From an uncultured Pseudomonadota bacterium (GTDB lineage Bacteria > Pseudomonadota > Alphaproteobacteria > JACZXZ01), in the NCBI GenBank assembly GCA_963749075.1, contig CAVVLJ010000023.1:35561-99560 (forward strand): a stretch of DNA of 64,000 nt, read 5' to 3'. The position numbers and the translations under genes were made by a program. Shown here piece after piece: positions 21,956 to 46,141 of this stretch; within the stretch, counting starts at the first letter, position 1, and every line of letters starts with the position of its first letter. The notes below the pieces were generated by a model. That model was not told the origin of the DNA. It saw only the letters and a list, made by a program, of their open reading frames with translations, and made no database searches.

Positions 21956-21957
21956 GA

Positions 21958-27116: not shown

Positions 27117-27125
27117 CGCCGGCCC

Positions 27126-28079: not shown

Positions 28080-28097
28080 GCCGTCTCGCTCTCGCCT

Positions 28098-28427: not shown

Positions 28428-28447
28428 GGCCGGCACCTCTGGCTCCG

Positions 28448-29482: not shown

Positions 29483-29509
29483 GTGGCGCTCTCCCGACCG
29501 GCCGGCGCC

Positions 29510-29710
29510 CTAACCCGCCTTCAGCGCCTCCCTCGTCTCGGGTGCACCTCCGATGACCCAGTTCTCCTTGGCGATGTTCTCGAAGATGACGTGGACGCCG
29601 TCGCGCTTGGAGCCGCCGATGCGGACCAGCGCATCGGTGATGATCTCGGCGATCCGGCGCTTCTTCTCGACCGAACGGCCCTCGTAAAAGGCGACACGAA
29701 CGACCGGCAT
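29510..29710 (-). CDS. 4-oxalocrotonate-tautomerase-family protein
   Basis: MPVVRVAFYEGRSVEKKRRIAEIITDALVRIGG. Pro1 after Met and 66 aa are typical of the family. Confidence 0.75.
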   Translation of the reverse strand: MPVVRVAFYEGRSVEKKRRIAEIITDALVRIGGSKRDGVHVIFENIAKENWVIGGAPETREALKAG

Positions 29711-29727
29711 GTCTCTCTCCTCCTCGC

Positions 29728-31260
29728 TTAAGCCCCCAGCTCGAGATCCTGGAAGGCGATGATGCCATCCTGCGCGTGGACGAAGCCCTTCACTTTCGGG
29801 CTGAGCCCCTTGAAGTCCGAGCTGTAGTGCCAGGGCACATAGACCGCGTCGTCGTTCATGAGCTCGGAGATCTTGCGGAAGACGCCGCGGCGGTCCGCCT
29901 CGCTCTTCGCCTCGCGCTCGCCCACGATGAGCGCGTCCATCGCCGGATCGTCGTAGGCGTTGTACTTGGCGTAGGAGCCGGCGGATTGCAGCAGGATGGC
30001 GAGATATTGGTCCGGGTCCGGGCGATAGCCCCACCAGCCCTGCAGATCGACGGGCAGCGTGCCGGCGGCGAGCGTCGCGGTGTAGGCGGCCGAATCGATC
30101 TGATCGATCGCGATGGTGACGCCGAGCTCGGCGGCACTCGCCTGGAAGAGCTGCGCCGCGCGCTGCTTCACCGGATCGGGCTGGAGGGGCGCATGGATGG
30201 TGACGGGACCCAGTCCCGCTTCGCCGATCAGGCGCTTTGCCTTCTCCATGTCGTGCGTGAACGGCTTGTAACTGGCATCGTGGAAAGGACTCCCGGGGAG
30301 GATGCCGTCGTAGCCGATGGCGCCGGTGCCGAAGTAGGCGACCTGGTGGAGCGCTTCGCGATCGATCGCCCACTGGAAGGCCTGGCGGAACTTCTTGTTC
30401 CGCCCGGGATAGGCCGCGTGAAGGTTGAAGCCGAAATATTCCCAGCGGAAGCCGACCTTCTCGGAAACCACGATCTCTTTCGATTCGCGCAAGCGCCGGA
30501 TGTCCTGGAGCGGCAGCGCCTCGGCGATCTGCACGCCGTCCGAGCGCAGGGTGGCGAGGCGCGTGCTGTCCGTGGGAATGGAGCGCAGCACCACGCGCTC
30601 GAGGAGCGGCTTGCCGGCCACCCAGTAGTCCGGGTTCTTCTCGAGGACCGTCTGGTTGTCGCGGGAATAATCGGCGAGCTTGAAGGGCCCGGTTCCCACC
30701 GGATGCAGGCCGTAATCCAGGCCCCACTTCTGCAATGCGGCGGGCGAGGCGATGCAGCCGGAGACGTCGGTGAAGGGAAAGAGGAACGCCGCAAAGGGAT
30801 ATTTGAGCGTCATCTTCACGGTCAGCGCATCGAGCGCCTCGATGCGGTCGAGCGTCCTGATCTCGCCGCCGCGGATGGAGCCCACCTTGGGATCGCGGAT
30901 GCGCTCGATGTTGTAGCGCACCGCCTCGGCGTCGAAGGGCGTGCCGTCCTGGAAGCGCACCCCTTGGCGCAGCTTGAGGAGGAAGGTCTTGTCGTCGGGC
31001 TGCTGCCACGATTCCACGAGCCCCGGCGCCAATCGCCCCTGCCGGTCGACGGTGAAGAGCGCGTCATGCACCGCCCGCGTCGCGGCACGTCCCTGGATAT
31101 TGCCGGTGCGGTGCGGATCGAGCGTGAGCGGGTCGGCGAAGATCGCGACCGATATCGTGCCGCCCGGCTTGACGATGGCGGCGGCACTCCGCCGTAAGGG
31201 CAGCAGGCCGCCCAACGCGCCCGCGGCCGCAAGGCCCATGAGCTTGCGTCTTGTCACCAT
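29728..31260 (-). CDS. ABC transporter substrate-binding protein, family 5 (peptide/nickel/opine type)
   Basis: Signal MVTRRKLMGLAAAGALGG..., then ...LDPHRTGNIQGRAATRAVHDALF...LVESWQQPDDKTFLLKLRQGVRFQDGTPFDAEAV. Confidence 0.9.
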   Translation of the reverse strand: MVTRRKLMGLAAAGALGGLLPLRRSAAAIVKPGGTISVAIFADPLTLDPHRTGNIQGRAATRAVHDALFTVDRQGRLAPGLVESWQQPDDKTFLLKLRQGVRFQDGTPFDAEAVRYNIERIRDPKVGSIRGGEIRTLDRIEALDALTVKMTLKYPFAAFLFPFTDVSGCIASPAALQKWGLDYGLHPVGTGPFKLADYSRDNQTVLEKNPDYWVAGKPLLERVVLRSIPTDSTRLATLRSDGVQIAEALPLQDIRRLRESKEIVVSEKVGFRWEYFGFNLHAAYPGRNKKFRQAFQWAIDREALHQVAYFGTGAIGYDGILPGSPFHDASYKPFTHDMEKAKRLIGEAGLGPVTIHAPLQPDPVKQRAAQLFQASAAELGVTIAIDQIDSAAYTATLAAGTLPVDLQGWWGYRPDPDQYLAILLQSAGSYAKYNAYDDPAMDALIVGEREAKSEADRRGVFRKISELMNDDAVYVPWHYSSDFKGLSPKVKGFVHAQDGIIAFQDLELGA

Positions 31261-31662
31261 GACTGCATCCTCTCCTGTCCGATTTTATCGTTGCCTGATT
31301 TCGTGCCGCCGCGCGTTTGCCCGCGCGTGAGGCCGAGCGGAACTGCTAGTCCCCCGCCGCAGCGCGTTCAACGAAAGATTTGGCGACGGGCCTTGCCCTA
31401 GCGCTGCTATCGCGAAGAAAGCGGCGGCGTCGCTCGCGGGCGCTGTGCGCGCGCCTCGGAAAAATCCAATGACGGGATCGATTTGCGCTCAGAGGCCACG
31501 GCCATCCATCACAGCGGAGTGCTGTCGATGGACACCCGGCTGACCCCTACGTTACATTGTGGCAATGCGTCCCCGGCGAAATCCCTCGAGCAGGCACCGC
31601 ACCCGGCCTCCTTGCCGGCCCTCGCCGTCCTCGCTCGGGGTGCCTCGGCGCGAGCCTCGGTC

Positions 31663-32697
31663 ATGACGGAGCCGCGAGCGGCTGCGGCCGGCGAGGGCAG
31701 CCCGGTGCTCGAGGTCGACGACCTCTCTACGCACGTCTTCCTGCGTGGTGCCGTCGTGCGCGCGGTCGACGGCTTCTCCTGCAAGCTCGCCAAGGGCGAG
31801 ACGCTCGGCGTGGTCGGGGAGTCCGGCTGCGGCAAGAGCATGACGGCGCTCTCCATCCTGCGCCTCGTGCCCAATCCGCCCGCGCGCATCGTCCGCGGCG
31901 CCGTCCGCTTCCAGGGCCGCGACCTCCTGCCGCTCGCGGAAGCCGAGATGCGCAGGATCCGCGGCAACGAGATCTCGATGATCTTCCAGGAGCCGATGAC
32001 CTCGCTCAATCCGCTGATGACGGTGGGGCGGCAGATCAGCGAATCGATCGTGCTGCACCAGGGCCTCTCGCGCCGCGATGCCTGGGAGAAGGCCGTCGAG
32101 ATGCTGCGCCTGGTGCACCTCTCCGAGCCCGAGCGCCGGGCGCGCGATTTTCCCTATCAGATGTCGGGCGGCATGCGTCAGCGCGTGATGATCGCGATGG
32201 CGCTAGCCTGCAATCCCAAGATTCTCCTGGCCGACGAGCCGACCACGGCGCTCGACGTGACGATTCAGGCGCAGATCCTGCGCCTCATCGCGGAGCTCAG
32301 CGAGAAGCTCGGAACCGCGATCATGCTCATCACCCACGACCTCGGCGTCATCGCCGAGCACGCCGACCGCGTGGCGGTGATGTATGCCGGACGGAAGGTG
32401 GAGGAGGCGGAGGTGGGCGAGCTCTTTGCGGCGAGCTGCCATCCCTACACCAAGGGACTGCTCGCCTCGGTCCCGCGCGTCGATCGCGGGGCCGATGCCG
32501 TCGGCCGCCGCCGGCTGAGCGAGATCAAGGGCAGCATTCCGGGCCCCGACGATCTGCCGCCCGGCTGCCGCTTCGAGCCGCGCTGCCCCTTCGCCAGCGA
32601 CGCCTGCCGCGAGGCCTATCCGCCGCTCGAGGAGAAGCGGCCGGGCCATTGGGCCGCCTGCTGGCATGCCGACCGCGTGCTTGAGGCCGGCGCATGA
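31663..32697 (+). CDS. ABC transporter ATP-binding protein (DppD/OppD-type)
   Basis: [34 protein letters not shown], and a C-terminal oligopeptide-type CxxxxRC motif. Start ATG at 31663 is chosen; upstream ATGs exist. Confidence 0.88.
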
Positions 32698-33699
32698 GCG
32701 GGCCGGGCGTAGCCCCCGGCACCGCGAGCGCGCCGCCGCCGACGCTCGAGGTGCGCGACCTCGCCAAGCATTTTCCCATCCGCAAGGGCGTGCTCTCGCG
32801 CAAGTCGGGCGTCGTCCGCGCGGTCGACGGCATCTCGCTCTCGCTTCGCCGCGGCGAGACCCTCGGCCTCGTGGGCGAGAGCGGCTGCGGCAAGTCGACC
32901 GCCGGCAAGGCCATCCTCAAGCTGATCGAGCCGACGGGCGGCACCATCAAGCTCCTCGGCAGGGACATCACGCGGATGAGCAAGGCCGAGCTGCGCCCCC
33001 TCAGGCGCGAGATGCAGATGATCTTCCAGGACCCCTACTCGTCGCTCAATCCGCGCATGTCGGCGGGGGAGATCGTGGCGGAGCCGCTCGGCGTCCACCG
33101 CATCGCCGCAGGCCGCGAGAAGGCGGAGCGCGTGGCCGCGCTCTTCGAGCGGGTGGGGCTGCGCGCCGAGCAGATGGCGGATTTTCCCCAGCGCTTCTCC
33201 GGCGGCCAGCGCCAGCGCATCGGCATCGCGCGTGCGCTCGCCGTGGGCCCGCGGCTCATCGTCGCCGACGAGGCGGTCTCCTCGCTCGAACGTCTCGATC
33301 CAGGCCCAGGTGATCAATCTCCTCATGGACCTGCAGGACGAGTACGAGCTCTCCTACCTCTTCATCGCGCACGACCTCGCGGTGATCCAGCACATCAGCC
33401 ACCGCATCGCCGTGATGTATCTCGGCCGCATCGTCGAGCTCGCCGACAAGCGGGCACTCTTCACAGCACCCCTGCATCCCTACACGGAGGCGCTGCTCTC
33501 CGCCTCGCCCGTTCCCAATCCGGCGGCGCGGCGGCGCGATCAGATCATTCTCGCGGGCGAGGTGCCGAGCCCCATCACGCCGCCGAGCGGCTGCCACTTC
33601 CACACGCGCTGCCCCTATGCGCGCGAGGAGTGCCGCGAGGTGGCGCCGCTTTTGCGCGAGATCAGGCCCGGACATTGGGCGGCCTGCCACCTGCGCTGA
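32694..33699 (+). pseudogene. ABC transporter ATP-binding protein (DppF/OppF-type) with a +1 frameshift at ~33289
   Basis: Walker [10 protein letters not shown] and [15 protein letters not shown]...[10 protein letters not shown] are read in frame 3. Walker-B-distal (D)[15 protein letters not shown]...[11 protein letters not shown] continues in frame 1 (ORF 33232..33699). CTCGAACGTC stands where CTCGACGTC is expected. Confidence 0.7.
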
Positions 33700-33705
33700 G
33701 CTCTC

Positions 33706-34659
33706 TCAGGCGAGCGTCTCCGCCGGGGTGCGGGAGGCCGCGGCCGGCGCCGGGCCGGTCCGCTCGAAGCAGCCGAGGACCCAGTCGCGGAAGGCGAGCA
33801 CGCGCTCCGAGCACTTCGCCTCGGTCATCAGAAAATAATAGCCCTTGGCCGTGGTCATGGCGGCGTCGAGCGGACGCACGAGCCGGCCCTCCCTCAAGAG
33901 GTCGTCCGTCAAAAGGTTCCAGCCGAGTGCGATGCCCTGTCCCCCGCAGGCGGCCTGGAGGAGGAGGGGATGGCTGTTCATCTTGAGGCTCACGTGGTCG
34001 GTGTAGCCGGTGATGCCCTGCTCGGCGAACCACACCGGCCAGTCGATGAGGTCCGGGCGGTCGTCGTCGATCGAGAGCAGGGTCTCGCCGAACAGCTGCT
34101 CGACGCTAGTGAGGTGCTGCCGCCCGCGGAGATAGGCGGGGCTGCACACCGGAAAGACGCGGCCCGGCAGCAAAAGCGTCGCCTTGAAACCCGGCCAGGG
34201 CCCGGTGCCGAAGGCGATGCCCGCGTCAACCTGGTCCGCCACCTTTTGGAAGCCGCGGTCGGTCGCCACGATCTGCACCTCGATCTCGGGGTGGAGCGCT
34301 CTGAACCGGGGGAGGCGTGGGATGAGCCAATAGGTGGCGACCGCGAAGGTGACGCCGATGGCGATGCCCACGGGCCAGCTGCCGCCACGCAGATCGTCGG
34401 CCGCGTTGGCGACGTGCTCGAAGGCCATGGCGGCGGCGCGGTAGAGGCGGCTGCCGGCCCGCGTGAGCTCGAGCCCTCGGTGGAGGCGCCGGAAGAGGGC
34501 GATACCGAGCTCGCGCTCGAGCGCGCGCACCTGCTGGCTCACCGCCGCCTGGGTCACGCCGTGCTCCCGTGCCGCGAGCGTGAAGCTCGAATGGCGCGCC
34601 GCCGCCTCGAACATCAGCAGCGCCGAGAGCCGCGGAAGCCGGGTGAGAAGATCAGCCAT
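33706..34659 (-). CDS. LysR family transcriptional regulator (GcvA-like)
   Basis: [65 protein letters not shown] at 34659 lies inside ORF 33706..34881. Confidence 0.88.
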
Positions 34660-34976
34660 CGCCGTGCCAAGCCTCGCCACCGAAAGGGAACATCGCAGTA
34701 TCGCACGAGCCGCATTGTGCGGGCGCGAAAACTCTATCTCGTAGCAGGCGCTTCGTCCAGCCGGCGCCCGCGTAGGCTCTCCATAGGGCCCCGTCCTACC
34801 GACCGTCAATGAGGTCAGGGGCGAGCTACGGGGTCTTAAGCACCGCAGCGCTGCTGTTGGAACGCTCATAGCGACGCGCATATTCGCAAGGACCTACGGA
34901 GCCACCCGCGCCGAAGTGGCGGTCAGCGTTGAGGATTGTTGCCAATGATGCTGGCTCATCGGGTCGAGCGGTGCAC

Positions 34977-35392
34977 CTACGGCAATGGGAACGAATGACG
35001 AAGTGACAGCCTGCGATCAATCGTTCGGATGAGTTGTACGTACGAGCCGTTCCGGATGTTCGGTACTCCTACATTTTTTGTCACCCAGATAGCGCCACCG
35101 GTCTGGGCCACCGTCCAAGTTGATATGCCACCCTCGGGATCATCGATTTGAATTTGCCCGATCGGAAGCTTCACGGTCCTGGGAAATCTCAGCGATCGGT
35201 CAGCCGCTGAGTAGGTGCTAAAGCCCAAATGTTCCGAGATTACCTCGAGAGTACCATCGACCTCGACGGCATCGACTCCAGCGCGGGATTGAAAAACTGA
35301 CACAGTGAGCATCTGAATGTCGTGGGAACGAAGAGCAATGTCCCATTTGGCCAGCCGCTTGTTGGCGACCACGAGCACACTGCGCGGCACTA
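34977..35392 (-). pseudogene. 3' fragment of an ORF interrupted by the IS element (unknown function)
   Basis: A 138-codon open frame in low-G+C DNA. The apparent start codon of ORF 34977..35408 lies inside the IS left end. The frame is continuous with fragment 36217-36396 if the IS and one TA are removed. Confidence 0.45.
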
Positions 35393-36216
35393 GGGTCTGT
35401 ACCCGCATAATGTCTTGAAAAAGTTGTCCGAATGTGATTCACCGTGGTTGGAGGTGGATCATGCGGTTTGATTTGAGCGACGAGGAATGGGCGGTTCTTG
35501 AGCCGTTGATGCCGGGCCTTCGCAAGAAGGCGCGAGAGGATGATCGCCGGATCATGAATGGCATCTTCTACGTGCTGCGCACCGGCATGCCGTGGCGAGA
35601 TTTGCCGGAGCGCTATGGGCCTTGCACGACGGTCTACAATCGCTTCAACCGCTGGTCTCGCCGCGGCATCTGGAAGCGGATTTTCGACGCGCTGGCCGCG
35701 ACATCGCACGATAGCCTCTATCTGATCGACAGCACCATCGTGAAAGCGCATCGCGCGGCGAGCGGCGCAAAAGGGGGGAGAAAAATCAGGCGATCGGTAT
35801 TAGCCGGGGCGGGCGCAGCACGAAGATCCATGCGGTCGTCGACGGCAAAGGCCGCCCGCTGAACTTCATCGTCACGGGCGCACAGGTCCATGACAGCCAA
35901 GTCGTCGAAGCGGTGCTGGACACGCCCAAGCCGCCCCTCGCCGTCGCGGCCGACAAGGCTTATGACAGCCAAAAGGTCCGCCAGCAGATCAGGGACGAAG
36001 GTGCCTTGCCCGTCATCCCCAGCCGCAGCAATGCCACCAAGAAAGCCTATTGTCCCAAGCGCATCTATCGCAGGCGCCACAAGATCGAAAATTACTTCTG
36101 CCGCATCAAGGATTGGCGGCGCATCGCAACCCGATACGACAAGCTGGCCAGAAACTTCCTTGCCGCCGCAGCCCTCGTCGGAGCACTCTACTGGATCAAA
36201 TTGTGAGTCCAGACCC
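35393..36216 (+). mobile_element. IS5-family insertion sequence (IS427-like group), 824 bp
   Basis: Imperfect terminal inverted repeats GGGTCTGTACCCGCATAATG / CAAATTGTGAGTCCAGACCC (14 of 20 match). TA flanks both ends. Two overlapping transposase frames. Confidence 0.85.
35461..36206 (+). CDS. IS5-family DDE transposase, orfA-orfB joined by -1 programmed frameshift near 35768-35785
   Basis: OrfA is MRFDLSDEEWAVLEPLMP...IMNGIFYVLRTGMPWRDLPERYGP...STIVKAHRAASGAKGG. The -1 frame continues EKNQAIGISRGGRSTKIHAVVDGKGRPLNFIVTGAQVHDSQ...ADKAYDS...RRHKIENYFCRIKDWRRIATRYDK. The slippery stretch is CAAAAGGGGGGAGAAAAA. Confidence 0.8.
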
Positions 36217-36396
36217 TAATGGAAAGGGCGGCGAAGTGAGAATGAGATTCACCTTGCCTCGAGCTCGAGCTAGTTCGTGGTGACTAAGGGCATCTTCGAT
36301 GGTCCCACTGATCATCTTACCGAGGTTAGTGCGGTATGCACGTGTGACCTCTCCGTTGCGACGCTTAGCTTTCGGCCTTAGCGAACTCTCTGGCAA
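36217..36396 (-). pseudogene. 5' fragment of the IS-interrupted ORF; carries a DNA-methyltransferase motif-IV-like TSPPF
   Basis: ...RTNLGKMISGTIEDALSHHELARARGKVNLILTSPPFPL resembles N-termini of N4/N6 DNA methyltransferases (cf. the TSPPFAL motif of M.PvuII). Start is either TTG at 36396 or the internal ATG. Confidence 0.45.
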
Positions 36397-36853
36397 GTGT
36401 CGCTCCGCGTAATAAGGTTATCCGATGGGGTGGGGCGGACGGATCGTATCCGATATTTTTCAGGCGTCGACCGTAGTGGTGCTCGCGTACCTAGAATAGC
36501 ATTGAGTAGGTTCTCGCAAAAGGGAGGGCGTTCATCAAGGCGCTGCTGGGTCGGGGCGAGCATGGGCCTCAGACGTTGTGGTTCGAGGAAGATCGATTTC
36601 GAGGAGACGAGTAAAGTGCCATGGGCCCGACGTGGGAAATTGCCAATGTCGCACGCATGGTGGATGACCGGCAGGCGACGCGGGAAGCAGCATGAGCGTT
36701 GAAAAGCATTGAGTTTACTGCCCGATTATCCTATTGTCTAGAACAAATAAGGAACTCTGGTCCCTGCGAACACTATAGGTAGTGGCTATTATGGATTTCT
36801 TTCACAAAATGTGACAGGGTAAGATGCGGATGCGTCGGGCAAGGGGGACTGCG

Positions 36854-37087
36854 ATGCGAATAAAAATCACTAAGCGTGAGGAAGGATCGATTCCGTCGGA
36901 GACAGTCGTTACGATTCTGACGACGCGCGGACCGGAAGAAGTTGTCGTCCACGCCACCCAAGCGTCAGCGGCCAGTGTCGAGGCTGGTTATATCGGCGAG
37001 AAGGATGATCAGGTCCTGGTAGAACTTCCTCGCGAGACCCTCTCCGGTCGGTGGAGAGTGTGGGTGCCCAAAACAGCGGTCGCATAA
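36854..37087 (+). CDS. Hypothetical 77-aa protein (partner ORF of the Dcd-like gene)
   Basis: ATG at 36854 lies 6 nt after AAGGGGGA. MRIKITKREEGSIPSETVVTILTTRGPEEVVVHATQ...VLVELPRETLSGRWRVWVPKTAVA. The ORF is intact in stop-rich low-G+C DNA and ends 26 nt before the next gene. Confidence 0.5.
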   Translation: MRIKITKREEGSIPSETVVTILTTRGPEEVVVHATQASAASVEAGYIGEKDDQVLVELPRETLSGRWRVWVPKTAVA

Positions 37088-37113
37088 TCGGTTCAGCCCA
37101 GGGGAAGGGGCCG

Positions 37114-37650
37114 ATGATACTGACGGATCGTGAAATCCAAATTTTCATCGCGAACAAACAGATTACGATCGATCCCGAGCCGTCGATAGATGCCTACAGC
37201 TCCACTAGCCTCGACCTCACCCTCGGTGAAAGGGGAGAAATTTGGAAGGACCTGCCCGGTCAACCGATCCAACCCGATGCTAAGGGCTATAATTTCAGGC
37301 AATTGGCGGCGCGAAGAGACAAGGTTGCGCTGGACGGATTCCCCTTCAAATCGAAAGCTTTGCTCCTTGCGTGGACGCGTGAGACCGTAGACCTGCCTTA
37401 TACGTCTCGCATCGCTGCCAGGGTCGAAGGCAAAAGCGGATTGGCGCGCTTAGGAATGTTAATTCACATGACCGCGCCCACGATCCACGCGGGGTTCAAA
37501 GGCCAGATACAATTGGAAATGTACAACCTCGGCCCCTATGACGTTATTCTCGACGCCGGCATGCCAATTTGCCAATTGATTTTTGAAATAACATTCGGAA
37601 CGCCTGCAAAGGGCTATGTCGGCCAATTCGCGGGACAAGCGGCAAGATAG
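37114..37650 (+). CDS. dCTP deaminase-family protein (stand-alone, 178 aa)
   Basis: MILTDREIQIFIANKQITIDP..., EGKSGLARLGMLIHMTAPTIHAGFKGQIQLEMYNLGP aligns by eye with E. coli Dcd [43 protein letters not shown] RBS. Confidence 0.85.
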   Translation: MILTDREIQIFIANKQITIDPEPSIDAYSSTSLDLTLGERGEIWKDLPGQPIQPDAKGYNFRQLAARRDKVALDGFPFKSKALLLAWTRETVDLPYTSRIAARVEGKSGLARLGMLIHMTAPTIHAGFKGQIQLEMYNLGPYDVILDAGMPICQLIFEITFGTPAKGYVGQFAGQAAR

Positions 37651-37983
37651 CAATTCAGCTACTCCAGCTTTCGCTTTCACATCGGCCCACCACCGTCCGG
37701 CCGGGAGCGTGCCCGGCCCACCCGCCTCCGGAAAGCCCTGCTTGGTCATGGACCCGCTCCCCATCTTTCATTGCAGCTGTCCCATTGCTGGGCTAGTGTC
37801 CCGGCCGCAAAGCGCCCCGTTGCGCGCCGATAGCGGGACGATCCCGCTCCTCGATCGGCGAGCAGTCTCGGGTACGGACTCCCAGTCACGCGGCTCGGCA
37901 GGCTCAAGGCGCACGGGACTCGGTGCGGCGGCCAGGCGGCTTCGCTCAACGCGAAAGGCCCGCGATCTCGAAAGGAAAACGCA

Positions 37984-38988
37984 GTGCTCAAGCTCGGGTA
38001 CAAGGCGTCGGCGGAGCAATTCGGGCCGCGCGAGCTCTTGAAGTTCTCCTGCCAGGCGGAGGCGTCGGGCTTCGACTCCGTCTTCGTCAGCGACCATTTC
38101 CAGCCCTGGCGCCACCACGGCGGCCACGCGCCCTATTCCTTCGCCTGGCTCGGGGCGCTCGGCGCCAGCACCTCGCGCGTCGTCCTCGGCACCAGCGTGG
38201 TGACGCCGACCTTCCGCTACCACCCCTCCATCGTGGCGCAAGCCGTGGGGACGCTCGCCGTGATGTTCCCGGGCCGCGTCATCCTCGGCGTCGGCACCGG
38301 CGAATCGCTCAATGAGGTGCCGGCCCTCGGCATGAAGTGGCCGGGCTTCAAGGAGCGCCACGGCCGGCTCAAGGAGGCGATCGAGCTCATCAAGCAGCTC
38401 CTCTCCGGCGAGCGCATCAGCTACGAGGGCGCTTATTATCGCACCGCCAATGCCACGATCTACGACCGCCCGGAGGCGCCGGTGCCGATCTACGTCGCGG
38501 CCTCGGGCCCGACCGCGGCCAAGCTCGCGGGCGAGGTCGCGGACGGCTTCATCTGCACGAGCGGCAAGGCGCCCGCCCTCTATAACGAGACGCTGCTGCC
38601 CAACGTCGAGGCCGGCCTCGCGGCCTCGGGGCGCGCCAAGGACGCCATCGAGCGCATGATCGAGATGAAGGTCTCGTTCGACCACGACCGCGCCCGCGCC
38701 ATGGAGGCGACGCGCCATTGGGCGGCACTCGCCCTCTCGCCTGAGGAGAAGACGGGGGTCGAGGACCCGATCGAGATGGAGCGCCTCGCCGACGCGCTGC
38801 CGCTCGAGCGGGCGGCAAGCCGCTGGATCGTCTCGACCGATCCCGAGGAGCACATCGAGAAGCTCAAGCCCTATCTCGATCTCGGCTTCAACCATCTCGT
38901 CTTCCATGCGCCCGGCCCCGACCAGGAGCATTTCCTCCGCCTCTATGGCGCCGAGGTGCTGCCTCGCCTGCGTCAGCGCTTCGGCTGA
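37984..38988 (+). CDS. fgd: F420-dependent glucose-6-phosphate dehydrogenase
   Basis: LKLGYKASAEQFGPRELL...SVFVSDHFQPWRHHGGHAPYSFAWLGALG...GVGTGESLNE...RWIVSTDPEEHIEK...NHLVFHAPGPDQ follows M. tuberculosis Fgd1 almost motif for motif. GTG start after AAAGGA. Confidence 0.92.
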   Translation: MLKLGYKASAEQFGPRELLKFSCQAEASGFDSVFVSDHFQPWRHHGGHAPYSFAWLGALGASTSRVVLGTSVVTPTFRYHPSIVAQAVGTLAVMFPGRVILGVGTGESLNEVPALGMKWPGFKERHGRLKEAIELIKQLLSGERISYEGAYYRTANATIYDRPEAPVPIYVAASGPTAAKLAGEVADGFICTSGKAPALYNETLLPNVEAGLAASGRAKDAIERMIEMKVSFDHDRARAMEATRHWAALALSPEEKTGVEDPIEMERLADALPLERAASRWIVSTDPEEHIEKLKPYLDLGFNHLVFHAPGPDQEHFLRLYGAEVLPRLRQRFG

Positions 38989-39083
38989 GCGGGCATCGCC
39001 GCCGCCCGTGCTTGCGTGCGGCCGAATTGCGCGACATGCTGCCGCCGCACGCGACCGCTGCTGAGGCTTGAGGCACGCCGCAG

Positions 39084-39854
39084 ATGGAACGCAACACGGT
39101 GAAGCTCGTGGCCGTGTCGGGGATGCCGCTCGTGGCGGCGGGCGACGATCTCGCGGCACTGGTGATCGCGGCGCTCGAGGCGGGCGGGCATGCCCCGGCC
39201 GACGGCGACGTGCTGGTGATCGCGCAGAAGGTGGTATCCAAGGCGGAAGGTCGCTATGTCGACTTGGCGTCGGTGCGGCCCTCGGAGCGCGCGCGAGAGC
39301 TTGCCGCGGCCGTCGACAAGGACCCGGCCATGATCGAGGTGGTGCTCTCGGAATCGCGGCGCGTGCTGCGCCACCGGCCGGGCGTGCTGATCGTCGAGCA
39401 TCGTCTCGGCTTCGTCATGGCCAATGCCGGGATCGATCACTCGAACGTGGAGCAGGGCGGGGGTCCGGGCCGCGTGCTCCTTTTGCCGCGCGATCCCGAT
39501 GCTGCCGCCGAAGCGTTGCGCCAGCGCCTCGCCGGCCACTTCGGCACGGCGCTCGCGGTCATCGTCAGCGACAGCTTCGGGCGCGCCTGGCGCAACGGGA
39601 CGGTGGGCGTGGCACTGGGTGCCGCCGGTCTGCCCGCACTCCTCGACCTGCGCGGCCGGCCCGATCTCTACGGCAATGCGTTGAGGGTGACGCAGACCGG
39701 CTTCGCCGACGAGATCGCCGCCGCAGCCTCGCTCCTCATGGGCCAGGCCGACGAGGGCCTGCCGGTCGTGCTCGTGCGCGGGCTCTCCTGGCAAGGTGCT
39801 GCGCTGCCGGCCGCGGCACTTGTGCGCAAGGCCGACGAGGATCTCTTCCGATGA
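39084..39854 (+). CDS. cofE: Coenzyme F420-0:L-glutamate ligase (stand-alone CofE, no nitroreductase domain)
   Basis: GDVLVIAQKVVSKAEGR...GFVMANAGIDHSNV...AVIVSDSFGRAWRNGTVGVALG...ADEIAAAASLLMGQADEGLPVVLVRG. 256 aa. Confidence 0.92.
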   Translation: MERNTVKLVAVSGMPLVAAGDDLAALVIAALEAGGHAPADGDVLVIAQKVVSKAEGRYVDLASVRPSERARELAAAVDKDPAMIEVVLSESRRVLRHRPGVLIVEHRLGFVMANAGIDHSNVEQGGGPGRVLLLPRDPDAAAEALRQRLAGHFGTALAVIVSDSFGRAWRNGTVGVALGAAGLPALLDLRGRPDLYGNALRVTQTGFADEIAAAASLLMGQADEGLPVVLVRGLSWQGAALPAAALVRKADEDLFR

Positions 39855-40849
39855 CGGCGCCCCCGGCAGGCGACGAGGGTCGCGTCCTCGTCCTCTCGGG
39901 CGGCGTCGGCGGCGCCAAGCTCGCGCTCGGCCTGGCGCGCGTGCTGGCACCCGGCCGGCTCGTGGCGGTCGCCAATACGGGCGACGATTTCGAGCATCTC
40001 GGCCTCGCCGTCTCGCCCGATCTCGACACCCTCATGTACGTGCTCGCGGGCCTCGACAATCCGCAGACCGGCTGGGGGCGCAAGGACGAGAGCTGGACCT
40101 TCATGGCAGCACTCGCGGCACTCGGCGGCGAGACCTGGTTCCGCCTGGGCGACGGCGACCTCGCGACGCACGTGGAGCGCACGCGGCGGCTGGCGGCGGG
40201 CGAGCCGCTCTCGCGCATCGCCGCCGATTTCTGCCGCCGCCTCGGCATCGCGACGCGGCTCCTCCCCATGTCGGACGACCCGGTGCGCACGCGCGTGAGG
40301 ACCGCGGACGGCTGGCTGCCCTTTCAGGAATATTTCGTCCGCCGGCGCTCCGAGCCTCGCGTCCTCGGCTTCGCTTTCGAGGGCGCCGATCGCGCGAAGC
40401 CTCACCCCGATTTCCTCGCCGCCCTGCGCGATCCGGATTTGCGCGCCGTGGTGGTCGCACCCTCCAACCCCTTCATCAGCATCGATCCGATCCTGGCATT
40501 GCCCGGCGTGCGCGCGGCGCTGGCGGCAGCGCCGGCGCCGGTCGTGGCCGTCTCTCCCATCATCGGCGGACGCGCGGTCAAGGGGCCCACCGCCAAGATG
40601 ATGGGCGAGCTTGGCCTGCCGCTAAGCGCTGCCGCGGTCGCGCGCCATTATGGCGCACTCCTCGATTGCTACATCGTAGACGAGCGGGACAGCGCTGCTG
40701 CCGCCGAGCTCGAGGTGCCCGTGGTCGCGGCCAAGATCCTGATGACGAGCCTGGCCGAGCGCGAGGCGTTGGCGCGCGCGGTGCTGGCGGCGGCGGATGC
40801 CGTGCCGCGCGCGGCGGCCGTCCGCCGCCGGGGCCGTGGCGCTCTATGA
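39851..40849 (+). CDS. cofD: 2-phospho-L-lactate transferase (LPPG:FO transferase)
   Basis: VLVLSGGVGGAKLALGL...VANTGDDFEHLGLAVSPDLDT...WGRKDESW...APSNPFISIDPIL. ATGA overlap with cofE. Confidence 0.93.
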   Translation: MTAPPAGDEGRVLVLSGGVGGAKLALGLARVLAPGRLVAVANTGDDFEHLGLAVSPDLDTLMYVLAGLDNPQTGWGRKDESWTFMAALAALGGETWFRLGDGDLATHVERTRRLAAGEPLSRIAADFCRRLGIATRLLPMSDDPVRTRVRTADGWLPFQEYFVRRRSEPRVLGFAFEGADRAKPHPDFLAALRDPDLRAVVVAPSNPFISIDPILALPGVRAALAAAPAPVVAVSPIIGGRAVKGPTAKMMGELGLPLSAAAVARHYGALLDCYIVDERDSAAAAELEVPVVAAKILMTSLAEREALARAVLAAADAVPRAAAVRRRGRGAL

Positions 40850-41544
40850 GTGCCGCGGGCGGCATCTGGGCTGCCGTGCCGGTCAAGGATACGCGCCAGG
40901 CGAAGCAGCGCCTCGCCGGGCTGCTGCCGCCCGAGCTGCGCCGTCCCCTGGCACTCGCCATGCTCGAGGACGTGCTCGCCGCCCTCGCCGCTGCTCCCGG
41001 CCTCGCCGGCATCCTGGTGGTGACCGAGGATGTGGACGCCCGCGCGCTGGCCGAGCGCTTCGGCGCAGGCACCGTGGCCGAGGACGCGAACGCGGGCCAC
41101 ACGGCCGCGGTCGCCGCGGCGGCGCGGCGCCTCGTCAAGGAGGGCCGCGCCGGCATGCTCGCGGTGCCGGGCAACGTCCCGCTCGCGACCGCGGCAGAGG
41201 TCGAGCGTTTTCTCGCCGCCCACGGCCCGGCACCCGCCTTCACAATCGCACCGGCGCACGACGAGCGCGGCTCGAATGCCGTGCTGGTCTCGCCGCCCGA
41301 TGCCGTGCCGCTCTCTTTCGGCAACGACAGCTTCTGGCCGCACTTGCGCGCCGCGGAAGTGCGCGGCATCCGCCCCGCGGTCGTGCGCTTGGCTGGCTTC
41401 GGGCTCGACATCGACGGCCCCGAGGACCTGGCGGCCTTCGCCGCGATCGGCCGGCACACCAAGGCGCTCGCCTGCCTCGAGAGCTTCGGCATCGCAAGGA
41501 CGCTGCGCGCTTCGCGCGCGGGGGCGACAGCCGGGCGGGACTGA
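40846..41544 (+). CDS. cofC: 2-phospho-L-lactate (or PEP/3-PG) guanylyltransferase
   Basis: [21 protein letters not shown]...[10 protein letters not shown]...[17 protein letters not shown]... ATGA overlap with cofD. Confidence 0.88.
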
Positions 41545-41563
41545 CACCAGGGAGGAGCGGCAC

Positions 41564-42586
41564 ATGCAGATCGGCGTGATCGGCCTCGGCCGGATGGGCG
41601 GCAACATCGCGCGCCGGCTCATGCGCCACGGCCACGAGTGCCTCGTCCATGACCGCGAGGAAGCCGCCACGGATCGCCTCGCTGCCGAGGGTGCCAGGCC
41701 GGTGCGGCGTCTCGCGGATTTCGTCGAAGCGCTCGCCGCACCTCGCGCCCTCTGGGTCATGCTGCCGGCGGGCGAGGCGACCGAGGCGGCGATTGGCGAG
41801 CTCGGCGCGCTGCTGGCTGAGGGCGACATCGTGATCGACGGCGGCAACTCCCACTTCCACGACGACGTGCGCCGCGCAGCATGGCTCAAGGAGAAGGGCA
41901 TCCGCTACGTCGACGTGGGCACCAGCGGCGGCGTCTGGGGGCTCGAGCGCGGCTATTGCATGATGATCGGCGGCGAGCCCGAGGCCGTGGCACACCTCGA
42001 CCCGGTCTTCGCGGCACTCGCCCCCGGCCTCGGCGACATCCCGCGCACGGTGGAACGCGGCTCGCGCGACGGGCGCGCCGAGCGCGGCTATCTCCATTGC
42101 GGACCGCACGGCGCCGGACACTTCGTCAAGATGGTCCACAACGGCATCGAGTACGGCCTGATGCAAGCCTATGCCGAGGGCTTCGATATTCTGCGCAGCG
42201 TCGCCAAGGCGGAGATCCCTGCTTCGCGGCGCTACCGCCTCGATCTCGCCGCCATCGCCGAGGTGTGGCGCCGCGGCAGCGTCATCTCCTCCTGGCTCCT
42301 CGACCTCACGGCGTCAGCACTCGCCGAGGATGGCGAGCTCAGGCACTATTCGGGCTTCGTCGAGGATTCGGGCGAAGGGCGCTGGACGGTGCTGGCCGCC
42401 GTCGAGGAGGCGGTGCCGGCCGACGTGCTGACCGCGGCACTCTACGCGCGCTTCCGCTCGCGCCAGGAGCACACCTTCGCCGAGCGCCTGCTCTCAGCCA
42501 TGCGCTTCAAGTTCGGCGGCCACGTCGAGCAGGCGGCGGGCAGTCCCTCTCCCGCAAGCGGGAGAGGGAGGGACCCGCGGCCGTAA
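41564..42586 (+). CDS. gnd: 6-phosphogluconate dehydrogenase, decarboxylating (short Gnd/YqeC-like form)
   Basis: [19 protein letters not shown]...[10 protein letters not shown]...[19 protein letters not shown]...[24 protein letters not shown]. The last ~13 codons and the stop lie inside a REP element. Confidence 0.9.
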
Positions 42587-42687
42587 GGCCGTGGGAGGGT
42601 GAGGGACGACGCCGGCATCGGGCATTCCCTCACCCTTCCCATCCCTTCGGGATGGGCCCCTTCCCTCTCCCGTAAACGGGAGAGGGA
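42544..42687. repeat. REP-like repeats, family B, copy 2 (composite of hairpins, partly the inverse of copy 1)
   Basis: TCCCTCTCCCGCAAGCGGGAGAGGGA... and TCCCTCACCCTTCCCATCCCTTCGGGATGGGCCCCTTCCCTCTCCCGTAAACGGGAGAGGGA. The latter is the reverse complement of 15652-15713 apart from the loop bases. Confidence 0.7.
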
Positions 42688-42720
42688 TTTCTTGGTTTAG
42701 AGGAAGGAAAGGACGACGAC

Positions 42721-43449
42721 ATGGCGGACGATAGGGCACAGCTTCACGTGGCCGAGAGCGCCGAGGCGCTCGCCCGCGACGCCGCCGATTTTCTCTGCAG
42801 CGCGGCCACCGCCGCTGAGGCACGCTTCACCGTGTGCCTCGCCGGCGGCTCGACGCCCAAGCGGCTCTACGAGCTCCTCTCCGGTCCCGACTATGCCGGC
42901 CCCTTCCCCTGGGCACGAGCCCATTGGTTCCTCGGCGACGAGCGTTTCGTGCCGCACGACGACCGAGAGAGCAATTACCGCATGGTGCGCGAGACGCTCC
43001 TCGCGCGCGCGCCGGTGCCTCAAGAGAACGTCCACCCGGTGCCGACCGAGGGCCTGACGCCGGAGGCCGCGGCCGCGGCCTACGAGCAGGAGCTCAAGCG
43101 CCATTACGGCTCGGCTACGCTCGAGCGGGAGCGCCCGCTCTTCGACGTGACCCTCTTGGGCCTCGGCGAGGACGGCCACACGGCGTCGCTCTTCCCCGGC
43201 CATGCGGCGCTCGAGGAGCGCCAACGTTGGGCGCTCGCGGTGGCGGGCGCCAAGCCCGAGGTGCGCATCACGCTCACCTATTCCGTGCTCGAGAGCAGCC
43301 GGGAGGTGGTCTTCATGGTGGCGGGTGCCGGGAAGCGCGAGAGGCTCGCCGAGGTGCGGCGCGGCGGCGCGCTCCCGGCGGCGCGCCTCAAGCCCGTCGG
43401 CCGGCTCCACTGGTTCGCCGACCGCGCGGCGGCTCCCGAAGGGGCCTGA
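42721..43449 (+). CDS. pgl: 6-phosphogluconolactonase
   Basis: CLAGGSTPKRLYELL...HWFLGDERFVPHDDRESNY...DVTLLGLGEDGHTASLFPG. AGGAAGGAAAGGA RBS. Confidence 0.9.
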   Translation: MADDRAQLHVAESAEALARDAADFLCSAATAAEARFTVCLAGGSTPKRLYELLSGPDYAGPFPWARAHWFLGDERFVPHDDRESNYRMVRETLLARAPVPQENVHPVPTEGLTPEAAAAAYEQELKRHYGSATLERERPLFDVTLLGLGEDGHTASLFPGHAALEERQRWALAVAGAKPEVRITLTYSVLESSREVVFMVAGAGKRERLAEVRRGGALPAARLKPVGRLHWFADRAAAPEGA

Positions 43450-43459
43450 GCGCCGCGGC

Positions 43460-44236
43460 TCAGGCGAGCGTCATCTCGGTCAGCGGCACCACGCGCACGC
43501 CGGCCGCCTCGAGGCCCTGGCGCACGGCGCGCGCGGCCTCGACGGCACTCGGCTCGTCGCCGTGGACGCAGAGGCTGTCGAGCTTCTGCGGGATGTGCTT
43601 GCCGTTGCGCGAGACGATCTCGCCGTCGAGCACCATGGCGACGACGCGGCGCTTGATCTCCTCCGCGTCGTGCAGCACGGCACCCGCGATCTTGCGCGAG
43701 GTGAGGTTGCCGTCGTCGTCGTAGAGGCGGTCGCAGAAGCCCTCGCGCGCGAGCGGCAGGCCGAGCTCGAGTGCCGCGTGCTCCATCTCCGAGCCGGCCA
43801 GCGCCACATAGATCATCTTTGGGTCGACCGTCTTCATGGCGCGGCCGATGGCGAGCGCCATGTCGCGGTTCTCCGCCGCCATGTTGTTGAGCGAGCCGTG
43901 CGCCTTCAAGTGGCTCACCTTGACGCCGGCATAGGCGGCGATCGCCTGCAGCGCGCCGATCTGGTAGGCGACCATGTATTCGAGGTCGCGCAAGCCCATG
44001 TCGATGCGGCGGCGCCCGAAGCCCCAGAGGTCGTTGAAGCCCGGGTGCGCGCCGATGCTGACGCCCTTCTCCTTGGCGCGCATCACCGTGTGATGCATGA
44101 CGTTGGAATCGCCCGCGTGGAAGCCGCAGGCGACGCTGGCGGAGCCGATGACGTCGAGGAGGGCGTCGTCGTTGCCGATCTTGAAGGCCCCGAAGCTCTC
44201 GCCCATGTCCGCGTTGAGATTGACTTCCTTGGCCAT
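43460..44236 (-). CDS. pxpA: 5-oxoprolinase subunit A (LamB/YcsF family)
   Basis: MAKEVNLNADMGESFGAFKIGNDDALLDVIGSASVACGFHAGD...HLKAHGSLNN. Confidence 0.9.
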   Translation of the reverse strand: MAKEVNLNADMGESFGAFKIGNDDALLDVIGSASVACGFHAGDSNVMHHTVMRAKEKGVSIGAHPGFNDLWGFGRRRIDMGLRDLEYMVAYQIGALQAIAAYAGVKVSHLKAHGSLNNMAAENRDMALAIGRAMKTVDPKMIYVALAGSEMEHAALELGLPLAREGFCDRLYDDDGNLTSRKIAGAVLHDAEEIKRRVVAMVLDGEIVSRNGKHIPQKLDSLCVHGDEPSAVEAARAVRQGLEAAGVRVVPLTEMTLA

Positions 44237-44387
44237 CGCCGCACTCCTCCTCAAGCCAGGCCGCCGGCCCTGGTCTTCCGCCGGCCCCTGTGGTACGAAG
44301 CCGATCTGGTACTAAGATCGAGACGATCATAAGATAGGCCTTTCCGGCCGATCAATCGAATCATCGGCTCCGTGGCGGGCGGTCGAG

Positions 44388-45110
44388 GTGACGGCGAGAT
44401 TCCTCTCGAGCGGCGACAGCGCGCTCGTGGTCGAGTTCGGCGAGCGCATCGAGCGGCGGCTGAGCGACGAGGTGTTGCGGCTCGATGCGCGCGTCCGCGA
44501 GGCGGGGCTTTCCGGCGTCGTCGAGACCGTCCCCACCCTGCGCTCGCTCATGGTGCATTACGATCCCTTGCGTACGAGTGCCGCGGAGCTCCAAGCGGCG
44601 ATCGAGCGGCTCATGGGCGCCGCGGCGGCGCTCGAGCGCAAGGGGCACCTCTGGCGTCTGCCGGTGTGCTACGAGGACGACTACGCCCCCGACCTCGCCG
44701 AGGTCGCCGAGAGGAAGGGGCTGGCGCCCGAGCAGGTCGTCTCGCTCCATTCGGGCACCCGTTATCACGTCTACATGATCGGCTTCCTCCCCGGCCTGCC
44801 CTACATGGGCGACCTGCCGGAGGCGCTGGCGCTGGCGCGGCGCGCCGACCCGCGCGTGCGGCTTCCCGCCGGCGCGGTCGCCATCGCCACCACCATGACC
44901 ATCGTCTATCCGCTGGAGAGCCCGGGCGGCTGGCATCTCATAGGGGCTACGCCCGTCCGCCTCTTCGACGCGAGCTGGCCGCAGCCCGCACTCCTCGCCC
45001 CCGGCGATGCGGTCGAGTTCGAGCCCATCGACAAGCGCGCATTCGCCAAGCTCAAGACCGCGGTCGAGCGCGGCAAGTATCAGCCCCACCACGAGGAGCT
45101 GGCACCTTGA
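44388..45110 (+). CDS. pxpB: 5-oxoprolinase subunit B (allophanate hydrolase subunit 1 / KipI family)
   Basis: RFLSSGDSALVVEFGERI...VVETVPTLRSLMVHYDP...YHVYMIGFLPGLPYMG. GTG start. Confidence 0.88.
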   Translation: MTARFLSSGDSALVVEFGERIERRLSDEVLRLDARVREAGLSGVVETVPTLRSLMVHYDPLRTSAAELQAAIERLMGAAAALERKGHLWRLPVCYEDDYAPDLAEVAERKGLAPEQVVSLHSGTRYHVYMIGFLPGLPYMGDLPEALALARRADPRVRLPAGAVAIATTMTIVYPLESPGGWHLIGATPVRLFDASWPQPALLAPGDAVEFEPIDKRAFAKLKTAVERGKYQPHHEELAP

Positions 45111-46141
45111 GCGCCGCCCTCAAGGTCGTAGCACCCGGCCTGCACAGCACGGTGCAGGACCTAGGCCGCTTCGGCTATCAGGCGGCGGGCGTGCCGGTGT
45201 CGGGCGCCCTCGACGCCGTGAGCCTGCGCCTCGCCAACCGCCTCGCCGGCAATGGCGACAATGCCGCGGCCCTCGAGATCCTCTACCACGGCCCGACCTT
45301 CGAGGTGGAGGCAGCGAGCGTGCGCGCAGCACTCGCGGGCGGCGGCGCCGTGCTCGAGCTCGTGGGCGAGCGCGCGCAACTGCTCGGCGGCTGGAGGAGC
45401 CACAGCTTCCGCCGCGGCGAGCGCTTCCGCGTGAGATTCCTCGAGGAGGCCTCCTGCTGCTATCTGGCGCTCGAGGGCGGCATCGCGGTCGAGCCCTGTC
45501 TCGGCAGTGCCGCCACTTACGTGCGCGGCGGCTTCGGCGGCTTCAAGGGGCGCGCGCTTCAAGCGGGCGATCTCCTGCCGCTCGCCCGCGAGAGCGTGGA
45601 GGAGCGTCCCGAGCTCGCACTTTTAAGCCCGCCCGGGGCGGGGCGCGAGCGGCCGCTCCGCGTCGTGCTCGGGCCGCAGCAGGATCATTTCAGCGAGGCG
45701 GCCTTGGAGCACCTCCTCGGCGCCGGGTTCGCCGTCTCGAAGGACGCCGACCGCATGGGCTTGAGGCTCGATGGGCCGCGGCTCGCTCACCGGGACGGCT
45801 ACGACATCGCCTCCGACGGCATCGCCACCGGCGCCATCCAGGTGCCCGGCTCGGGCCAGGCCATCCTCTTGCTCGCCGATCACCAGACGACCGGCGGCTA
45901 TCCCAAGATCGCCACGGTGATCTCGGCCGACCTGCCGCTCGCCGGCCGCCGCCGGCCGGGCGATGCCGTGCGCTTCGCCGCCGTCGAGGTGGCGGAGGCG
46001 GAGGCCTTGCGCCGCGCCGAGGAGGCGGCGTTCCAGGCGCTCGCCGCCAGCTTCGTTACGGCCGAAGCCGCCGCCGGCTTCGATCCCGAGCGCCTCTACC
46101 GCACGAACCTCATCAGCGGCGTGGTCTCGGGCCATGAGTGA
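45107..46141 (+). CDS. pxpC: 5-oxoprolinase subunit C (allophanate hydrolase subunit 2 / KipA family)
   Basis: LKVVAPGLHSTVQDLGRFGYQAAGVPVSGALD...GLRLDGP...GAIQVPGSGQAILLLADHQTTGGYPKIATV. The TTG start overlaps the pxpB stop. Confidence 0.88.
   Translation: MSAALKVVAPGLHSTVQDLGRFGYQAAGVPVSGALDAVSLRLANRLAGNGDNAAALEILYHGPTFEVEAASVRAALAGGGAVLELVGERAQLLGGWRSHSFRRGERFRVRFLEEASCCYLALEGGIAVEPCLGSAATYVRGGFGGFKGRALQAGDLLPLARESVEERPELALLSPPGAGRERPLRVVLGPQQDHFSEAALEHLLGAGFAVSKDADRMGLRLDGPRLAHRDGYDIASDGIATGAIQVPGSGQAILLLADHQTTGGYPKIATVISADLPLAGRRRPGDAVRFAAVEVAEAEALRRAEEAAFQALAASFVTAEAAAGFDPERLYRTNLISGVVSGHE

Follow-up and report, generated by a model that had tools for sequence, protein, structure and literature searches.

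The DNA analysed here, referred to throughout as the window, is a 64,000-nucleotide stretch (positions 35,561 to 99,560) of contig CAVVLJ010000023.1, which is 133 kb long and belongs to the 5.49-Mb soil metagenome-assembled genome (23 contigs) of an uncultured alphaproteobacterium. Our subject is a cluster of six genes, fgd, cofE, cofD, cofC, gnd and pgl (Table 1), predicted to encode an F420-dependent glucose-6-phosphate (G6P) dehydrogenase, three enzymes of F420 biosynthesis, a 6-phosphogluconate dehydrogenase and a 6-phosphogluconolactonase. Genes were called as open reading frames with high third-position G+C (the G+C content of the window is ~68-70%), and protein identities were judged against curated NCBIfam cut-offs, with Pfam in agreement for all six. 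An earlier sequence-only reading had placed six colinear plus-strand genes in this order at 37984-43449, and each of the six proteins indeed lies above its cut-off; CofC, CofD and CofE each exceed their own equivalog cut-off. The ATGA overlaps it reported at cofE/cofD and cofD/cofC, as well as the 19-nt gap between cofC and gnd, were seen on direct reading of the junctions, and this gap contains a GGGAGGAG ribosome-binding site. In gene order from fgd to pgl the junction spacers measure 95, -4, -4, 19 and 134 nt, so that the tight packing described for the whole cluster holds from cofE to gnd and loosens at its two ends. The gene for FO synthase, fbiC, had been put about 19 kb away; it lies on the other strand, 18.9 kb upstream of fgd. 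The genes fgd-cofE-cofD-cofC are colinear on one strand, and the place adjacent to cofC is occupied not by fbiC but by gnd.

Table 1. Features discussed in the text; positions are those of the window unless a locus is named, and scores are given against the cut-off of the family where there is one.
Feature	Position	Strand	Evidence
fgd	37984-38988	+	TIGR03554 equivalog 462.2 bits vs cut-off 420; PF00296 218 bits
cofE, F420-0:gamma-glutamyl ligase	39084-39854	+	TIGR01916 279 bits vs 181; PF01996 match; 256 aa
cofD, 2-phospho-L-lactate (or EPPG) transferase	39851-40849	+	TIGR01819 304 bits vs 257
cofC, guanylyltransferase of 2-phospholactate/phosphoenolpyruvate type	40846-41544	+	TIGR03552 135 bits vs 105
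gnd, short-chain (tetramer-type) 6-phosphogluconate dehydrogenase	41564-42586	+	NF007161 473 vs 271; TIGR00872 387 vs 297
pgl, 6-phosphogluconolactonase	42721-43449	+	TIGR01198 198.8 bits vs 124.45; PF01182 236 bits
fbiC (cofG-cofH fusion), FO synthase, native to lineage	16677-19121	-	NF006687 1159 bits vs 1018
Genome-specific 24.3-kb segment replacing exactly fno-cofE-cofD-cofC, between fbiC and pxpA	19122-43455		Breakpoints vs same-genus loci
Cluster of repeats resembling repetitive extragenic palindromes (REP-like), forming the gnd-pgl spacer	42545-42700	+	Sub-elements with 161 blastn-short matches genome-wide; per-position depth to ~98
pxpA, native right flank	43460-44254	-	NF003814 342 bits; 87% aa identity to same-genus PxpA
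LysR-type regulator divergent from fgd	33706-34659	-	GcvA-like LysR matches
F420-type luciferase-like (LLM) oxidoreductase adjoining fbiC, native	15746-16699	+	TIGR03619 196 bits vs 167; syntenic in relatives
Open reading frame with second TIGR03619-type LLM, inserted segment	19771-21198	-	182 bits vs 167, residues 173-445
Mer-like LLM in peptide-type ABC importer operon, inserted segment	28448-29482	-	PF00296 196 bits; TIGR03555 196 bits, below cut-off
Other Fgd genomes without zwf and pgl (G029, G038, G039, G041, G047)	loci L034, L070, L078, L009, L063		fgd-cofE-cofD(-cofC)

Searches with hidden Markov models (HMMs) found one fgd, one pgl and one gene with a 6-phosphogluconate dehydrogenase (6PGD) domain in the entire genome, all of them in the cluster. 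Profile searches with TIGR00871 and PF02781 detected no zwf in the genome, and no fno was found either by HMM above the cut-off or by tblastn with the Fno of a relative; edd (Entner-Doudoroff dehydratase) was likewise not detected above its HMM cut-off. Given that the genome lacks both Zwf and Fno, Fgd is its only recognisable G6P dehydrogenase and its only recognisable F420 reductase, and the cluster would constitute, as far as homology tells, the organism's whole oxidative pentose phosphate branch. The proposal that F420 synthesis is coupled here to an Fgd-Pgl-Gnd route from G6P to ribulose-5-phosphate is thus supported by the absence of Zwf, Fno and Edd, by the presence of the sole fgd, pgl and gnd within the cluster, and by the recurrence of the linkage in other Proteobacteria described below. 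We consider it likely that the cluster is a self-sufficient module for F420 reduction, acquired by horizontal transfer, in which Fgd would stand in for both Zwf and Fno, with Pgl and Gnd disposing of its product.

The window Fgd aligns with the crystallised Fgd1 of Mycobacterium tuberculosis (Rv0407; 3B4Y) and with Rh-FGD1 of Rhodococcus (5LXE) at E ~1e-130. It retains H40, W44 and E109 together with the phosphate pocket formed by K198, K259 and R283 (M. tuberculosis numbering), and these six residues are invariant across all 81 aligned Fgd homologues. Mutagenesis of Rh-FGD1 has shown that the K198/K259/R283 pocket is crucial for G6P binding (PMC5352752).

With respect to the F420 side chain, alignment of the window CofC to 7P97 and 6BWG places a Gly at the residue diagnostic for 3-phosphoglycerate (3-PG), which corresponds to S162 in Mycetohabitans rhizoxinica and G163 in M. 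tuberculosis (PMC8764529); the motif at this site reads FGNDSF, compared with FSGPSF in 7P97. Because of this Gly, CofC should activate 2-phospholactate or phosphoenolpyruvate (PEP), not 3-PG. The route to 3PG-F420, for which a Mycetohabitans-type CofC with Ser or Thr is needed, was ruled out on the same basis (PMC8764529). An FbiB reductase domain, fused or stand-alone, was not detected above cut-off in the genome, the best match to TIGR03553 scoring 55 bits against 250.

Gnd combines a PF03446 Rossmann domain with a single PF00393 6PGD hemi-domain, and matches the enzymes of Gluconacetobacter diazotrophicus (6VPB, E 1e-132) and Gluconobacter oxydans (6XEQ and 10GW, E 1e-131). The C-terminal substrate motif RX2FGXH is kept, reading RFKFGGH, and the second Rossmann beta strand is followed by Asp-Arg, as in 6VPB (PMC12871650). 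The names of the two matching NCBIfam models conflict over the cofactor (NADP for NF007161, NAD for TIGR00872); Gnd may prefer NAD+. A weak match to Pfam F420_oxidored was not accepted as a sign of an F420-dependent Gnd, since it reflects the shared Rossmann fold. The last ~14 codons of gnd, past the RX2FGXH motif, lie inside the REP-like repeat, and the native stop of the gene appears to have been replaced through insertion of this repeat. Copies of the REP-like element are also present in the same-genus genomes G003 and G006. Within the gnd-pgl spacer, positions 42662-42687 form a terminator-like hairpin with an 11-bp, G+C-rich stem followed by a T-rich run. Among the best 80 of ~600 Gnd loci in JGI metagenomes, the nearest Gnd is at most ~70% identical to that of the window. 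A pgl lies on the same contig in 37 of these 80 loci, mostly as gnd, a gap of 1.5-3.7 kb and then pgl, and the gap could hold zwf.

The GTDB order to which the organism belongs comprises 11 species genomes, that of the window and 10 others, five of the latter from the same genus. CofD is encoded in nine of the 10, and Fno in the same nine; Fgd occurs in none of the 10. Among these 10 genomes, zwf, pgl and gnd are confined to two of other genera, and all five same-genus genomes are devoid of zwf, fgd, pgl and gnd. In the relatives, the locus reads (in the orientation of the window) an LLM gene, a minus-strand run of fbiC, cofC, cofD, cofE, fno and pxpA, and next pxpB, pxpC, coxL and coxM, with fno between pxpA and cofE in all six relatives whose locus shows that interval. 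At the DNA level, both flanks of the window cluster share 82-88% identity with the same genus, compared with only 69-72% for the cof genes, which are inverted. On the fbiC side, similarity to the same-genus loci breaks off at 19100, immediately upstream of where fbiC starts; it is regained at the pxpA stop, at position 43455. These breakpoints delimit the inserted segment (Table 1). The six-gene cassette forms one end of this segment, oriented opposite to the native cof genes, and the ~19 kb of genes at 19122-37983 have no syntenic counterpart in the same-genus genomes.

Sequence divergence and phylogeny point to a foreign source for part of the cassette. The window CofD is only 63-66% identical to CofD of its own genus, a value below the 72% shared by two different genera of the family, whereas FbiC follows the species order, with 82% amino acid identity within the genus and 77% between genera. 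In the tree of CofE and CofD, the window sequences group with an fgd-linked, Stellaceae-like alphaproteobacterial clade (including loci L059, L015 and L080) and fall outside a well-supported clade of their own order. Approximately unbiased (AU) tests on the 29-row CofE and CofD alignment under LG+G4 reject a clade of the window with its own genus (log-likelihood difference 149, p 4e-16) and one with five genomes of its own order (difference 69, p 0.006). A phylogeny of Fgd had been suggested by the sequence-only reading as a test for horizontal transfer; in that tree, the neighbours of the window Fgd are the same Stellaceae-like clade, and thus fgd-cofECD travelled as a unit. Judged from sequence, CofE and CofD are foreign and FbiC is native. 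The loci of the Stellaceae-like clade contain no close relatives of Gnd or Pgl, so the cassette may be a mosaic.

To place the cluster in a wider context, we surveyed the best 80 of ~600 Fgd loci in other GTDB species genomes. The order fgd-cofE-cofD-cofC recurs in 37 of the 80, and a compact (fgd)-cofE-cofD-cofC-fbiC operon is described from genome-based surveys of F420 among aerobic bacteria of soils (Ney et al., 2017, as cited in PMC8498797). This four-gene order is a common, already known proteobacterial module, and the unusual part is the attachment of gnd and pgl. In the open-access full texts, we found no report of Fgd replacing Zwf or of fgd-pgl-gnd linkage in Proteobacteria.

In 14 of the 80 loci, pgl and/or gnd lie near fgd, in arrangements that include gnd-pgl-fgd, pgl-fgd-gnd, fgd-gnd-pgl and gnd between cofE and cofD. 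As these linked loci are scattered on the Fgd tree, the linkage probably arose more than once. We then took a census of zwf in 39 other Fgd genomes, made up of these 14 and 25 whose fgd-cof locus lacks a neighbouring pgl or gnd. Twelve of the 14 linked genomes are without zwf, compared with five of the 25 unlinked ones (Fisher p 1e-4, or 7e-4 after collapsing two near-identical pairs), although these p-values overstate the case, the genomes being phylogenetically non-independent. The fgd-linked pgl is the sole pgl in 13 of the 14. One locus of an uncultured proteobacterium whose genome has no zwf (L045:8001-12708) carries fgd and pgl, followed on the opposite strand by cofD, gnd and cofE; with gnd between cofD and cofE, the F420 and pentose phosphate genes are interleaved more tightly there than in the window.

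Fno was found in none of 40 Fgd genomes (G011-G050), while the same search was positive in all nine cofD-carrying genomes of the order, and not one of the 51 genomes covered has both Fgd and Fno. Across this sample, the two behave as alternatives to each other, each a charging module placed before cofECD. This differs from the published statement that alphaproteobacterial F420 producers encode both Fgd and Fno (PMC8498797). We tentatively extend these observations, with somewhat less than even confidence, to a broader view in which Fgd-Pgl-Gnd replaces the NAD(P)-dependent oxidative branch in scattered zwf-less Alpha- and Gammaproteobacteria, cofECD is preceded by either Fgd or Fno as exchangeable modules that exclude each other, and the window records a recent swap from Fno to Fgd.

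Several observations, in addition to the phylogenetic non-independence mentioned above, weigh against a self-sufficient acquired module. CofE is a single-domain protein without the FbiB nitroreductase domain, and if the substrate of CofC were PEP, the reduction of dehydro-F420-0 would be left without a recognised enzyme. The terminator-like REP hairpin stands between gnd and pgl, and a 3.3-kb islet of low G+C separates fgd from its candidate LysR regulator. The exact six-gene order is absent from the best 80 of ~600 Fgd loci in GTDB species genomes and equally from the best 80 of ~600 Gnd loci in JGI metagenomes, and the gnd-pgl pair may not share its origin with the fgd-cofECD block. Five Fgd genomes (Table 1) have neither zwf nor a TIGR01198-type pgl, so that Fgd is not strictly dependent on a linked Pgl; another lactonase family or incomplete assemblies could explain these five. 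The genome itself is estimated to be 96.3% complete with 5.15% contamination, which leaves room for a zwf on unassembled DNA, and G6P dehydrogenases of the short-chain dehydrogenase/reductase (SDR) type exist in haloarchaea (PMC8506132). Finally, H260 of M. tuberculosis Fgd1 is replaced by Thr in the window protein.

The incompleteness of the assembly, spread over 23 contigs, and the existence of SDR-type enzymes would both suit an explanation in which gnd and pgl merely happen to adjoin the F420 genes, an ordinary G6P dehydrogenase is encoded elsewhere (unassembled or non-homologous), and Fgd serves as a side entrance as it does in mycobacteria. Zwf is present in 20 of the 25 genomes with unlinked fgd-cofECD, and the hairpin before pgl weakens the case for a single operon. 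On the other hand, zwf is absent here by two independent models and, by TIGR00871, from all five genomes of the same genus, including three that are 97-100% complete; the only pgl and gnd of the genome sit in the cluster, and 12 of the 14 unrelated genomes in which the genes are linked show the same pattern. We regard incidental adjacency as unlikely. More improbable still, in our view, is that the window protein is not a G6P:F420 enzyme at all, being either an Fsd-like dehydrogenase of broader sugar-6-phosphate range or an LLM enzyme that acts on another substrate or uses a flavin cofactor. The substitution of H260, the matches to the related LLM families TIGR03557 and TIGR03885, and the fact that no proteobacterial Fgd has been characterised (PMC8498797) would allow for this. 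H260 is, however, not a family-wide feature, since Met (43), Thr (20) and Val (10) occupy the position in most of the 81 homologues and His in only four. The protein also exceeds the Fgd equivalog cut-off, resembles the characterised actinobacterial Fgds at the E-value given above, and has all three catalytic and all three phosphate-pocket residues, invariant in 81 of 81 sequences, while the recurrent linkage to pgl and gnd argues for 6-phosphogluconolactone as the product and the linkage to cof genes for F420.

Vertical descent would require an ancestral cluster that was inverted where it stood and underwent rapid evolution in this species, while all relatives lost fgd, gnd and pgl and gained fno. 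The position of the cassette exactly at the ancestral cof locus, the host REP elements inside it and the divergence of this genome within its genus (FbiC 82%, compared with 96% between G004 and G006) could be accommodated in this way. Such a history, however, would need three genes to be lost in parallel, and fno to be gained, across four genera. The distance of CofD from its own genus also exceeds that of another genus, whereas the distance of FbiC does not; the AU tests reject monophyly with the genus and with the order, and Fgd, CofE and CofD have common foreign neighbours in their trees. We hold it to be highly improbable. We also considered that the arrangement could be an artefact of assembly or binning that joined the DNA of two organisms, given the contamination estimate and the lack of any listed public contig (in Logan, where contigs are short and of low depth) that bridges the pgl/pxpA or the fbiC junction. 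Among the sequencing runs listed, parts of the window occur only in two soil-metagenome DNA runs of one study and in no RNA run, and an independently assembled contig bridges 37319-39171. Mis-binning or mis-assembly is unlikely because REP repeats found throughout the host genome occur within the cassette and because synteny with the genus, at 82-88% identity, extends over the two flanks, which lie on the same 133-kb contig; the native fno-cofECD is moreover absent from the rest of the assembly. An artefact is thus scarcely credible, and a self-sufficient module acquired by horizontal transfer is the reading we retain.

The genome encodes 19 LLM genes, of which four, including fgd, lie in the window, and two of these four reach the TIGR03619 cut-off. 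The LLM oxidoreductases of the window are candidate F420H2 users. The idea that G6P is the electron source for such F420-dependent LLMs is consistent with Fgd as the only recognisable F420-reducing enzyme. The ~19-kb portion of the inserted segment holds two LLM oxidoreductases, two ATP-binding cassette (ABC) importers, two LysR genes and a low-G+C islet with an insertion sequence (IS) element. Its part at 19122-33986 carries two F420-type or Mer-like LLMs, one of them within an operon for a peptide-type ABC importer, and these may be catabolic functions dependent on F420H2 that were brought in along with the charging module. A search for FDOR-A (PF04075) gave no match in the genome, although the control also gave no match in any genome.

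The LysR-type gene at 33706-34659 is a candidate regulator of the cassette, as suggested by a comparable gene, 64% identical, that lies ~240 bp upstream of fgd and divergent from it in L022 (Stellaceae). It probably arrived with fgd and was later split off by the 3.3-kb islet. This islet (34800-37750) has a G+C content of 0.57-0.63, sequences within it match contig ends of the same-genus G006 at 84-87% identity, and a dCTP-deaminase-like gene is located at 37051-37650; the islet is suggested to be a mobile element. At the right edge of the insertion, pgl and pxpA are convergent with stops 10 nt apart, and an inverted repeat (CCTGAGC ... GCTCAGG, window 43440-43470) covers both stop codons; it could serve the two genes as a common terminator acting in both directions where the right breakpoint lies. 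Beyond pxpA, the open reading frame at 45007-46137 taken as pxpC has no NCBIfam match at E 1e-5, and its DNA is 77-78% identical to the same-genus loci; the true pxpC probably occupies a different frame, possibly inside 44372-46141.

From gene identity, copy number, synteny, breakpoints, phylogenetic incongruence and the associations with zwf and fno, we infer the activities, cofactor use, flux direction and co-transcription that the following scheme would involve. The native FbiC would make FO, the deazaflavin head group, to which CofC, CofD and CofE of the cassette would add the linker derived from 2-phospholactate or PEP and the glutamate tail. Fgd would then oxidise G6P to 6-phosphogluconolactone while reducing F420 to F420H2, Pgl would hydrolyse the lactone, and the short-chain Gnd would decarboxylate 6-phosphogluconate to ribulose-5-phosphate, perhaps with NAD+, so that the product re-enters central metabolism; the F420H2 would be spent by LLM-type reductases. 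By replacing the native fno-cofE-cofD-cofC, the cassette would have switched the electron source of F420 from NADPH to G6P. As Pgl and Gnd convert the lactone, no dead-end product would accumulate in a host without an oxidative branch and without an Entner-Doudoroff dehydratase. This may be why pgl and gnd travel with fgd, the host otherwise having no route for the product of Fgd; in a recipient genus without an oxidative branch, the incoming module would have had to bring both genes along. If Gnd were specific for NAD+, the branch would yield F420H2 and NADH but no NADPH.

A recent review describes the role of F420 in Proteobacteria as unresolved, and no proteobacterial enzyme that reduces F420 or uses F420H2 has been studied (PMC8498797). 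The locus offers a testable model in the form of a portable cassette that would make F420, recharge it from G6P and provide its own route for disposal of the product. Three aspects appear to be new: the attachment of pgl and gnd to F420 genes, the apparently full replacement of Zwf and Fno, and the swap of a module at a conserved locus. If Fgd is the sole G6P dehydrogenase in zwf-less bacteria, a textbook NADPH-producing pathway would run on a deazaflavin instead in ordinary aerobic bacteria of soils and sediments, and such rewiring, if true, would affect metabolic reconstructions. The change from fno-cofECD to fgd-cofECD-gnd-pgl at one locus would also be a clear case of a cofactor-charging module swapped by horizontal transfer, and the six genes together with fbiC could serve as a natural blueprint for F420 synthesis and regeneration in a heterologous host.

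Among known systems, the closest in terms of the enzyme is that of the actinobacteria. The window Fgd is of the same family as mycobacterial Fgd1 and Rh-FGD1 of Rhodococcus and has the same catalytic and phosphate-pocket residues. We know of no linkage of mycobacterial fgd to cof, pgl or gnd; unlike the mycobacterial system, the window has fgd linked to cofECD, gnd and pgl, and Thr in place of H260. The same chemistry is expected as for mycobacterial Fgd1, in which G6P and F420 give 6-phosphogluconolactone and F420H2 and the product feeds the pentose phosphate pathway (PMC8498797, PMC5352752). Mycobacteria, however, keep Fgd beside a canonical NADP-dependent Zwf (PMC8498797), whereas no Zwf is detectable in the window genome. 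With canonical gnd-zwf-pgl and zwf-pgl operons, the cluster shares the families of its short-chain Gnd and its Pgl but not the first step, which is carried out by an NAD(P)-dependent Zwf in those operons and would be carried out here by an F420-dependent LLM-fold enzyme of unrelated fold. Gnd is of the same length class as the short-chain tetrameric 6PGD enzymes of G. diazotrophicus and G. oxydans and shares their RX2FGXH motif, but its C-terminal ~14 residues, unlike theirs, are REP-encoded.

As for F420 gene clusters, the fno-cofE-cofD-cofC-fbiC cluster of the organism's own genus and family occupies the same locus, from pxpA to the LLM next to fbiC, and contains the same biosynthetic genes. 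In that cluster, the reductant for F420 is NADPH via Fno, and fgd, pgl and gnd are missing; the cof genes of the window are of a different clade and run in the opposite orientation. The compact proteobacterial F420 operon shares with the window the order fgd-cofE-cofD-cofC, a single-domain CofE and a fused FbiC. It differs in that the window carries gnd and pgl after cofC, and an fbiC of native ancestry that lies at a distance, on the other strand.

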